From Candidatus Aenigmatarchaeota archaeon (GTDB lineage Archaea; Aenigmatarchaeota; Aenigmatarchaeia; GW2011-AR5): 59,818 nt of DNA. The stretch spans positions 1 to 59,818 of the forward strand of contig JACPAH010000002.1 in the NCBI GenBank assembly GCA_016180925.1, written 5' to 3'. Numbering within the stretch: position 1 is the first letter of the stretch; each line of letters begins with the position of its first letter. Made by a program: the position numbers and the translations under genes. Shown piece after piece: positions 21,282-58,620 of the stretch. The notes below the pieces were generated by a model. That model was not told where the DNA came from. It saw only the letters and a list, made by a program, of their open reading frames with translations, and searched no databases.

Positions 21282-21369
21282 GGGCTGGTAGATCAACTGG
21301 AAGATCGCTTGCATGGCATATCTTGCGAGCCAAGGCAAGAGGCTACGGGTTCGAGTCCCGTCCAGTCCA
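21282..21369 (+). tRNA. tRNA-Ala(GGC) with an intron of about 15 nt (21319-21333) in the anticodon loop
   Basis: manual cloverleaf: acceptor GGGCTGG/CCAGTCC with G3:U70, D arm GATC-AACTGGAA-GATC, anticodon stem CTTGC/GCAAG enclosing 22 nt, variable AGGCT, T arm ACGGG-TTCGAGT-CCCGT, discriminator A; CCA not encoded. Confidence 0.8.
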
Positions 21370-21370
21370 T

Positions 21371-21420
21371 AAGCCCCTTTTCTTTTCAAAAAAGAAAAGG
21401 CCCTTGGGTTCAAAAGAAAA
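21371..21420 (+). repeat. trailer module AAGCCCC-[11-bp hairpin]-GGCCCTTGGGTTCAA.., homologous to the 5' part of the tRNA-Cys intron (58491-58540)
   Basis: by-eye alignment; hairpin arms CCTTTTCTTTT/AAAAGAAAAGG here versus CCTTCTTTCTT/AAGAAAGAAGG there, changed on both arms. Confidence 0.6.
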
Positions 21421-21453
21421 TAATATATTTTAAGAGAAGAGGAGGTTGATAAG

Positions 21454-21563
21454 TCTGCAACGGAATAAGATTCCGTTGAGATGCTAATGGCATTGAAGAA
21501 TGCCATTCAGCAGATGAGAACTCTGCAAAGAATTCTCTCAGAATTCTTTGAGATCTCAGAGAG
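21454..21563. repeat. array of three family hairpins (CAACGGAAT-aag-ATTCCGTTG; AATGGCATT-gaag-AATGCCATT; CAAAGAATTCT-ctc-AGAATTCTTTG) with TCTGCA / AGATGC / CAGCAGAT / AGATCTC linkers
   Basis: inverted repeats read directly. Confidence 0.6.
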
Positions 21564-21576
21564 CCGTGGGTTCTGT

Positions 21577-22137
21577 TCAAATCCCCCCGTGTCCACTTTT
21601 CATCTTCTTGATTATCATATCGACGATTTGCTCCGGCTCCTTGTCCGACGTGTCCACCACGATATCGGCCTCGTTCTCCTGCGAGAAAGTGTCGAAGCCG
21701 TATATATGGAGGAAGCTCTGCCTCTCTATCCTGTCCCTCTCCTTCACGGCTCTCAGTGCGTCCTTTTCAGGCATGCCGTCCCTGCCGGAGATGCGCCTGG
21801 CCCTGACCTCGTCCGGCGCCTTGAGCCATACAGATACGCTGTACAAGCCCGAAAGAAGGCGTATGGAAAGCTTGCCGTCTATGACTATATTCCCGGCTCT
21901 TGCAAGCTCTTTCTGAAGGTCGTCGATGTTGACGTGAAAATCCCTCCTGGAGCCCTTCTTTGTAAGGAGGAACTCAGTTGCCCGCCTTGTTTCACCCTCA
22001 TTTACGCCGCTCTCAATGGCTTTTTGCTTGAAGAAATCCCCGGCCGAGAAATGCTTCAGCCCCAGACGCTTTGCCAGAAGCTTGGCGACGGTCGACGAGC
22101 CCGCTCCCGGCATTCCGGAAACGACTATGACTGTCAT
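21577..22137 (-). CDS. cmk: archaeal-type cytidylate (CMP) kinase
   Basis: P-loop SGMPGAGSSTVAKLLAKRLGLKHFSAGDFF and overall layout of archaeal Cmk; adenylate-kinase-like alternatives not excluded. Confidence 0.75.
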   Translation of the reverse strand: MTVIVVSGMPGAGSSTVAKLLAKRLGLKHFSAGDFFKQKAIESGVNEGETRRATEFLLTKKGSRRDFHVNIDDLQKELARAGNIVIDGKLSIRLLSGLYSVSVWLKAPDEVRARRISGRDGMPEKDALRAVKERDRIERQSFLHIYGFDTFSQENEADIVVDTSDKEPEQIVDMIIKKMKSGHGGI

Positions 22138-22187
22138 AGAAGTGTATTGCTAGTCAAATAGATAAATATGACGTATTTGGCAGCAAT

Positions 22188-58437: not shown

Positions 58438-58620
58438 GCTGGCGTGACAGAACGGCCATCTGCAAAGACCGTAGATGTGACCGCCTGCAGAAGCCCCTTC
58501 TTTCTTCAAAAGAAAGAAGGCCCTTGGGTTCAAGAAAGAATAAGCAAAATTATTATGAATATTCTTGAATCCTGCAGAAGCAGCAAGCGGTATAACCCGG
58601 TTCAACTCCGGGCGCCAGCT
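58438..58620 (+). tRNA. tRNA-Cys(GCA) with a 15-nt D-arm insertion (58461-58475) and a 95-nt anticodon-loop intron (58491-58585)
   Basis: manual fold after removing both: acceptor GCTGGCG/CGCCAGC, TG, D stem ACAG/CTGT, loop AACGGCCAT, G26, anticodon stem ACCGC/GCGGT, loop CTGCAG+A, variable ATAA, T arm CCCGG-TTCAACT-CCGGG, discriminator U (Cys identity). Confidence 0.7.

Follow-up and report, generated by a model that had tools for sequence, protein, structure and literature searches.

We describe a structured repeat of about 50 nt, here called the module, that occurs twice in a 59,818-nucleotide stretch of DNA from a Candidatus Aenigmatarchaeota archaeon (assembly GCA_016180925.1, contig JACPAH010000002.1, positions 1 to 59,818 of the forward strand; hereafter the window). 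One copy follows a tRNA-Ala gene and the other opens an intron of a tRNA-Cys gene. Both belong to a family in which the two arms of a hairpin and a downstream purine tail vary together as three matched tracts, and whose members lie in sense orientation, mostly at gene ends or within genes for stable RNAs. We put at roughly 0.6 the probability that the module is a strand-specific, probably mobile structured repeat that survives behind gene ends or where the splicing endonuclease EndA and the RNA ligase RtcB can splice it out, and that it is a source or carrier of tRNA introns.

Two copies with coordinated differences

The source genome (labelled G000) is small, with 844 kb in 41 contigs and a G+C content of 0.50. 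A protein encoded in the window shares 60-67% identity with proteins of Candidatus Aenigmatarchaeota archaeon MAGs from groundwater. An initial annotation of the window, made from its letters, had claimed that the tRNA-Ala trailer and the start of the tRNA-Cys intron share a module. The sequences are as it quoted them, and the two copies align without gaps, with 44 of 53 bases identical (83%). Copy 1 (21371..21423, plus strand) is the 3' trailer of the tRNA-Ala gene, with a single T between the discriminator and the module. Its segments comprise the 5' strand of a short helix, P0 (AAG, 21371-21373), CC (21374-21375), the 5' arm of the hairpin P1 (CC and a pyrimidine tract, 21376-21386), the loop (21387-21389), the 3' arm of P1 (a purine tract and GG, 21390-21400), CC (21401-21402), the 3' strand of P0 (CTT, 21403-21405), the spacer GGGTTC (21406-21411), the mirror purine tail (21412-21420) and TAA (21421-21423). 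Copy 2 (58491..58543, plus strand) begins at the 5' splice site of the second tRNA-Cys intron and parses in the same way, with P0 formed by 58491-58493 and 58523-58525, P1 by 58496-58506 and 58510-58520, the spacer at 58526-58531 and the mirror tail at 58532-58540.

The nine mismatches between the copies occupy matching positions of three tracts, three per tract, and all are coordinated. The pyrimidine arm reads TTTTCTTTT in copy 1 and TTCTTTCTT in copy 2, the changes in the purine arm compensate, and the tail after GGGTTC reads AAAAGAAAA and AAGAAAGAA, respectively. The initial annotation had reported two compensated differences per hairpin arm; the compensation stands, the count is three, and the most informative feature, a third tract that co-varies with the arms, had been overlooked. 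The 13-nt G+C-rich linker is the same in both copies. Against an expectation of 0.15, the window contains the 15-mer GGCCCTTGGGTTCAA twice, a count that none of 100 shuffles reached. RNAfold, which models the hairpin and not a third strand, predicts the hairpin and P0 of both copies.

A family defined by three-way covariation

We gathered copies from related genomes by fetching loci and building a hidden Markov model. At E ≤ 10 module matches were found in 59 of 61 related genomes, the weak ones being the hairpin alone; at E ≤ 1e-6 they were found in 42 of the 371 genomes of the phylum Aenigmatarchaeota, spanning several orders of the class. The module recurs at high identity in dozens of related genomes, and the best-stocked ones carry up to about a dozen good matches each. 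The collection comprises 97 distinct copies. The window copies are the only full ones in the 844-kb assembly (blastn-short), so the search for further copies that had been suggested returned no other full copy from the genome itself and many from the family, at tRNA and gene boundaries. No Rfam family covers the module at gathering score, the best sub-threshold matches having E > 1, and we found no published description of the module family.

The unit of about 50 nt consists of the 3-bp helix P0, a CC/CC internal loop, a pyrimidine/purine hairpin of 9-13 bp, the spacer and the purine tail. In P0, module bases 1-3 pair with three bases of the linker; the helix is fully paired in 62 of 65 parsed copies and occurs in six Watson-Crick variants (AAG/CTT, CAG/CTG, AGG/CCT, GAG/CTC, TAG/CTA and TGG/CCA). 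This covariation places the start of the element exactly at the boundary chosen in the initial annotation. P1 joins CC and a pyrimidine tract to a purine tract and GG, in more than 15 run-length variants that are all complementary; across 64 distinct hairpins, 735 pairs are Watson-Crick, beside 3 G-U pairs and a single A.C apposition. GGGTTC, the spacer, hardly varies from order to order, and the purine tail usually terminates at a C.

The direction of the tail was assessed by coding the pyrimidine arm and the tail of each copy by their run lengths. Of 39 copies whose arms are asymmetric, 29 have tails that run parallel to the pyrimidine arm (mirror), 9 are ties and 1, a mis-parsed tail, is antiparallel. 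Arm and tail run lengths match exactly in 47 of 74 copies, compared with a mean of 8.5 and a maximum of 17 when tails were shuffled among copies. A detector that does not depend on the linker found 32 mirror and 0 direct arrangements with the canonical linker, and 25 mirror and 1 direct with a dozen other linkers (57 versus 1 in total). Replication-type processes yield direct or inverted repeats, not mirror repeats.

Several other interpretations of these parts were considered and set aside. A mini-hairpin in the linker (CCC-NN-GGG) was dropped because the middle linker bases co-vary with module bases 1-3 as P0. The tail as a direct repeat of the purine arm, which would make it an alternative Watson-Crick partner and the module a switch, does not agree with the mirror symmetry of asymmetric arms. 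An archaeal oligo-T terminator is unlikely because the same T4-5 tracts must be transcribed through inside tRNA introns. The balance of G-U and A.C appositions, as an indicator of the transcribed strand, gave no signal, the stems being almost perfectly Watson-Crick.

A triplex-type architecture

In both window copies and across the family, a pyrimidine domain, its complementary purine domain and a third purine domain follow one another 5' to 3' on one strand. The third domain is the mirror image of the purine arm and antiparallel to it, and would give A.A-T and G.G-C triplets. Setting A opposite A and G opposite G is the purine-motif rule, which is why we read the module as triplex-coded. Its architecture is that of a class II intrastrand triplex, as defined by Holder et al. 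(2015; PMC4666352), on the sense strand and of class IV on the complement; in the ITxF nomenclature the purine motif is class II, and the complementary strand, with T.A-T and C+.G-C triplets, is class IV (PMC4666352). The covariation suggests that a physical triplex may form. A third strand in RNA is favoured by the strict sense orientation of the copies, and one in DNA by the exclusion of RNA in the literature and by the near-absence of G-U pairs. We found no paper that connects archaeal tRNA introns with triple helices.

The source genome also has four more triplex-type modules, in which the linker differs (G000:C7:20916, C9:16047, C13:23957 and C38:16584), and at least two of the four, those on C7 and C38, lie inside tRNA D-loops. 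Judged by sequence, the triplex-type design is broader than the GGGTTC subfamily.

Some copies have a compound structure. In L089/L090 (G009) and L110 (G006), one hairpin is followed by two to three tandem linker-plus-tail units of about 26-41 nt, an arrangement that gives it several candidate third strands. In L044 (G017), L060 (G010) and L057/L047 (G032), other small hairpin elements are nested in the linker or loop, and the match between arm and tail is preserved across them. Many D-loop introns (L100, L099, L102, L019, L022, L078 and L091) have a common 3' half after the module (...GGCTTCGCAAATATTAAAGGGGCT). The end of this half is complementary to the first bases of the module, AAGCCCC, so that in some cases the entire intron is a repeated unit of about 90 nt whose ends are inverted.

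Positions of the copies

Every copy that could be oriented lies on the sense strand of its host gene. Placement in tRNA genes followed a conservative automatic rule that required either bracketing by the acceptor and T arm or a split T arm. By this rule 39 copies are inside tRNA genes, 26 of them between the 5' strand of the acceptor and the T arm with the 3' strand of the acceptor, and 13 splitting the T arm. The rule left 36 copies unclassified, many of which are by eye insertions in the D-loops or anticodon loops of multi-intron tRNAs. For 24 copies, an interval beginning at the module could be excised to leave a tRNA recognised by ARAGORN, with junctions mostly at about positions 13-24 (D-loop), 34-40 (anticodon loop) and 57-64 (T-loop). 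This brute-force splicing is noisy and its anticodon calls are unreliable where other introns remain, and it was therefore used for junction positions only. Highly similar modules are found in many different tRNAs, at D-loop, 37/38 and T-loop positions. In tRNA introns and in the candidate introns of 5S rRNA genes the module forms the first half, and in tRNA introns it begins at the 5' splice site.

About a third of the collected set is not within tRNA genes, and these copies also stand at boundaries. In protein-coding genes, 20 copies have offsets of -4 to 0 relative to a stop codon that closes an open frame of 80 codons or more, the commonest overlap being a T followed by the AA or AG of the module. 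Six to eight copies start one to three bases after a tRNA 3' end (L001, L006, L024, L025, L037 and L127). Two families have a 5S rRNA gene interrupted at one shared position, after ...CCCGTTCCCAT (L008, G054:C52; L025:613-803, G017:C4); the insertions, of about 130 and 70 nt, each open with a triplex-type module and are candidate 5S rRNA introns or expansion segments. In three genomes (L033, L106 and L129), module variants lie at one site inside or next to RNase P RNA genes, after the conserved motif ...AAATGTTG..., with Rfam support for this context in L033 only and below the gathering score. In two genomes of another order (L118 and L120), variants lie in sequence that resembles the RNA of the signal recognition particle (SRP), and the hosts are probably SRP RNA genes. 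About ten copies are without placement. The initial annotation had named ubiquity in non-tRNA contexts with no boundary association as the outcome that would speak against its proposal; instead, the copies outside tRNA genes stand on stop codons, behind tRNA 3' ends or at a fixed site of the genes for 5S and RNase P RNA.

The two host genes in the window

The tRNA-Ala(GGC) gene (21282..21369, plus strand) was identified by Rfam (53.7 bits) and by ARAGORN with introns allowed. It has G3:U70, the discriminator A at 21369, no encoded CCA and a 15-nt intron at about 21320-21334. Copy 1 follows the discriminator of this complete tRNA and is thus a trailer and not an intron; by eye, no bulge-helix-bulge (BHB) was apparent between the end of tRNA-Ala and the sequence 3' of the module. 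Downstream, a TATA-like stretch and a hairpin array precede the 3' end of a cytidylate kinase gene, which is convergent (21577-22137, minus strand; Pfam). The array consists of three hairpins of a different repeat family at 21454-21563, between the module and the cytidylate kinase gene. A long plus-strand open reading frame at 21481-22161 is probably spurious.

The tRNA-Cys(GCA) gene (58438..58620, plus strand) has three exons (58438-58462, 58478-58490 and 58586-58620) and the discriminator T at 58620. ARAGORN recovers a clean 74-nt cloverleaf only once 58463-58477 and 58491-58585 are both excised. Owing to its two introns, the gene was missed until hand splicing both by ARAGORN with introns allowed and by Rfam, which reports three intron-bearing tRNAs in the window; without introns, ARAGORN reports none. 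Nearly all detectable tRNA genes of the source genome are interrupted. The first tRNA-Cys intron (58463..58477, plus strand; 15 nt) lies on the 3' side of the D stem and is unrelated to the module; a congener (G001) has a 26-nt intron at the same place. The second (58491..58585, plus strand; 95 nt) is at the canonical 37/38 position, as indicated by the sequence, the splice check and the orthologous introns of G001, G009 and G010.

A candidate BHB at the junction of the second intron was derived by hand, for this intron alone. The stem ACCGC/GCGGT is followed by the bulge CAA, the helix CUGC/GCAG (58485-58488 with 58580-58583) and the bulge AGA, that is, two 3-nt bulges around a 4-bp helix. 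There is no contiguous outer helix, and P0 and P1 of the module occupy its place. The whole intron is predicted by RNAfold to fold at -29.5 kcal/mol (z -3.75), with TTCTTGAATCC (58562..58572, plus strand) pairing with GGGTTCAAGAA (58526-58536). An 11-nt direct repeat, CCTGCAGAAGC, brackets most of the intron; its first copy (58484-58494) consists of the exon end and the first four module bases, and its second lies at 58571..58581 (plus strand). The repeat is unique to this intron, is absent from that of G001, and could be a duplication or an insertion footprint. No C/D-box or other known small RNA in the intron was matched in Rfam.

The source genome encodes EndA (PF01974, 95.5 bits, G000:C12:15922-16200) and RtcB (PF01139, G000:C30). 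The RtcB matches at G000:C30:24002-26746 form two pieces about 455 aa apart in one open frame of 984 aa, and this gene probably contains an intein.

Turnover and persistence among relatives

We compared orthologous tRNA loci, as the initial annotation had suggested. At the Ala site, a genome of the same genus (G001) has tRNA-Ala(GGC), then TGA only, then tRNA-Ala(CGC), and lacks the module. Another congener (G002) has between these two genes the module and about 57 nt, and its copy is 100% identical to the Ala copy of the window. At the Cys site, position 37/38 is filled in at least four genomes (G000, G001, G009 and G010) by variants that differ in arms, tails and even linkers, with the three-way match kept in each. 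The TTCTTTCTT variant is letter-identical in four genomes at four different tRNA sites, these being the source Cys intron and, in the other genera of G031, G035 and G044, different positions of different tRNAs. Orthologous gene ends also keep the three-way match (one in G027 versus G017; another, that of a small gene, in G018 versus G009). Copies are thus both replaced and conserved. The fold persists at its sites, owing either to selection or to conversion by active copies.

IS200/IS605 elements were examined as a possible mobiliser. Their TnpA (Y1 transposase) is present in 10 of 41 relatives and a TnpB-type protein in 16 of 41, and neither tracks the module. We set this candidate aside provisionally, for lack of co-occurrence in these incomplete assemblies.

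Discussion

The reading that we prefer takes the module to be a mobile, or formerly mobile, DNA element. Its insertions would persist only beyond gene ends or where their flanks form a BHB that EndA and RtcB can splice; this would make the module a source or carrier of tRNA introns. The three-stranded fold would be kept by selection and would form more probably in single-stranded DNA than in RNA, and in the Cys intron the module would take over the outer helix of the BHB. The initial annotation had raised intron mobility or transposition between tRNA sites, and the family bears out the general part of this idea, since it is tied to tRNA exon boundaries and stands at the head of introns in many tRNAs and at many positions, in keeping with intron gain or spread within the family. 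We offer as a tentative possibility a more specific version of our reading, in which a triplex-coded, strand-specific mobile element is the vehicle of tRNA and 5S intron gain, landing at RNA boundaries or in RNA genes, persisting where a BHB forms and being recognised or moved through its hairpin-plus-third-strand fold.

Several points weigh against the preferred reading. The argument for a third strand is one from covariation, and purine-motif triplexes are said not to form in RNA (PMC4666352) or are called disputed there (PMC7583470), at odds with the strict sense orientation, which points to selection on the transcript. In the Cys copy the spacer and the start of the tail have a competing 11-bp Watson-Crick partner at 58562-58572, a feature of this intron only. 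We found no target-site duplication and no consistent terminal repeats, terminal inverted repeats of the form AAGCCCC...GGGGCT(T) being confined to a subset of D-loop introns. No partner transposase was found among Y1 and TnpB-type proteins, other transposase families not having been searched, and G001 has TnpA without the module as the source genome has the module without TnpA. IMG/VR viral contigs held no exact 22-mer match, metagenome contigs not having been scanned. The overlap with stop codons is too precise for random insertion followed by selection, and the orthologous gene ends that keep their three-way match resemble a host function.

Such a function could be that of a boundary element, an RNA signal that caps the 3' side of a finished RNA and marks or protects ends, guides cleavage or shields tRNA folding. 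Cleavage would be by EndA at splice sites and by RNase Z or a 3'-end nuclease elsewhere, and the spread of the family would reflect function and not mobility. The strictly sense orientation fits this well, as does the start of the module exactly at processing sites. So do the stop codons overlapped by 20 of the roughly 30 copies outside stable-RNA genes, in registers from -4 to 0 and not at one fixed insertion target, the binding-site-like near-invariance of GGGTTC across orders, and the persistence of orthologous copies across genera with three-way compensation (the Cys intron in four genomes, G027/G017 and G018/G009). However, most genes and tRNAs are without the module, which therefore cannot be a general signal, and its distribution among congeners is patchy, with the Ala site of G001 empty and two copies here compared with a dozen or more matches in some relatives. 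Identical variants at non-orthologous sites in different families, together with nested insertions and tandem partial units, have the appearance of repeat dynamics, and the scarcity of G-U pairs is unusual in RNA that has long been under selection. On balance we regard a host boundary element as the main rival, a doubtful explanation to be kept in view, as is the shared processing signal that the initial annotation had named. That same scarcity, in hairpins almost without G-T appositions, would suit a structure acting at the DNA level, either a fold of the non-template strand (class II, A.A-T and G.G-C) or H-DNA arising in transcription or replication. Where highly transcribed genes end, such a structure might provide a site of pausing, insulation or recombination. 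It is the sense strand that transcription leaves single, all-DNA purine-motif triplexes are stable with Mg2+ and able to arrest polymerases (PMC4666352), and bacterial triplex repeats are tied to local genomic instability (PMC4666352). Yet RNA polymerase transcribes the whole module in tRNA introns, so the module is not a strong block; H-DNA needs a mirror repeat only, which leaves the co-varying inverted repeat and P0 unexplained; and PIT elements showed neither promoter nor terminator activity in E. coli (PMC4666352). We consider this explanation unlikely.

The specific suggestion of the initial annotation, that the module moved between the tRNA-Cys intron and the tRNA-Ala trailer, does not stand as a recent event in this genome and is in our view highly improbable. 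These are the sole full copies of the assembly, 83% identical and with the same linkers; however, they are different sub-variants separated by nine coordinated differences, and each has closer relatives elsewhere, the Ala copy being 100% identical to that of G002 at the same site and the Cys variant to those of G031, G035 and G044 at other sites. The Cys intron site is moreover old, being filled in several genera. Chance likeness of A/T-rich hairpins or terminators could be entertained on account of the low-complexity arms, and many unrelated T/A hairpins do give matches of 11-13 nt in the genome. It is refuted by the identical 13-nt G+C-rich linker, a 15-mer count above that of all shuffles, conservation across the family and covariation in three separate elements, and we assign it a negligible probability.

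Relation to known elements

The closest architectural likeness is to the bacterial repeats PIT, BoxC and TMECO (ITxF class II; Hoyne et al. 2000; Holder et al. 2015, PMC4666352). They have the same order of domains, namely pyrimidine, purine and a reverse-Hoogsteen purine tract antiparallel to the purine arm, and are likewise multi-copy, conserved and non-coding, with no known function and with loci that vary between close strains. TMECO is a G/C-rich intergenic motif for which neither orientation nor gene association has been reported (PMC4666352). By contrast, the module is A/T-rich, its G.G-C steps numbering one or two, and adds to the common design a conserved spacer and a co-varying helix of 3 bp; it is strictly sense, exactly at RNA or gene boundaries and part of tRNA introns. 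By inspection of composition and linker only, it has no sequence homology to BoxC or TMECO, and the likeness is architectural.

In behaviour, the nearest counterparts are the intron families of Thermoproteales, which are common to several tRNA genes and positions and have been ascribed to 'large-scale intron transposition' (Fujishima et al. 2010, as relayed in PMC4090602 and bioRxiv 10.64898/2026.10.13.758758). As described there, they are removed by BHB splicing and their mechanism of arrival is not known. The module differs in belonging to a DPANN lineage, in sharing only the 5' half of the intron, in occurring also outside tRNA genes (in trailers, on stop codons and in the genes for 5S and RNase P RNA) and in its triplex-type covariation signature. 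To our knowledge no such signature has been noted for the Thermoproteales families.

Miniature inverted-repeat transposable elements (MITEs) and repetitive extragenic palindromic (REP)-type repeats, such as the SM elements of Sulfolobus and REP/BIME, resemble the module in being short, non-coding, hairpin-forming, dispersed, patchy, and nested or tandem. Compared with typical MITEs, the position and strand of the module are far more constrained, no target-site duplication or partner transposase was found for it in our searches, and terminal inverted repeats are present in some intron copies only. Triple-helix elements at the 3' ends of viral and long non-coding RNAs (MALAT1, MEN-beta and PAN ENE) share with it a hairpin onto which an A-rich tract further downstream folds back, and that of MALAT1 lies beside a tRNA-like cleavage site (PMC7583470). 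In those RNAs two U-rich strands clamp one A-rich strand in a pyrimidine-motif U.A-U helix (PMC7583470), whereas one U-rich and two purine strands in the module would give A.A-U and G.G-C triples, which have yet to be established in RNA. We take the module to be an undescribed variant uniting two known kinds of element.

Implications

The way in which introns enter archaeal tRNA genes has yet to be explained. The 'transposition' described in Thermoproteales is without a known vehicle, and a 2026 census of Asgard tRNA introns leaves the route of arrival open. The module is seen both free, behind tRNA 3' ends and stop codons, and within introns, at the 5' splice site, with empty and filled sites among congeners, and it is therefore a concrete candidate for such a vehicle. 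The three-way mirror covariation is also rare comparative evidence for selection on a triple-helical fold, of the purine-motif type that is known from bacterial DNA repeats without known function and is disputed for RNA. Should the transcript fold in this way, it would provide the first natural example of a contiguous RNA triple helix of the purine motif.

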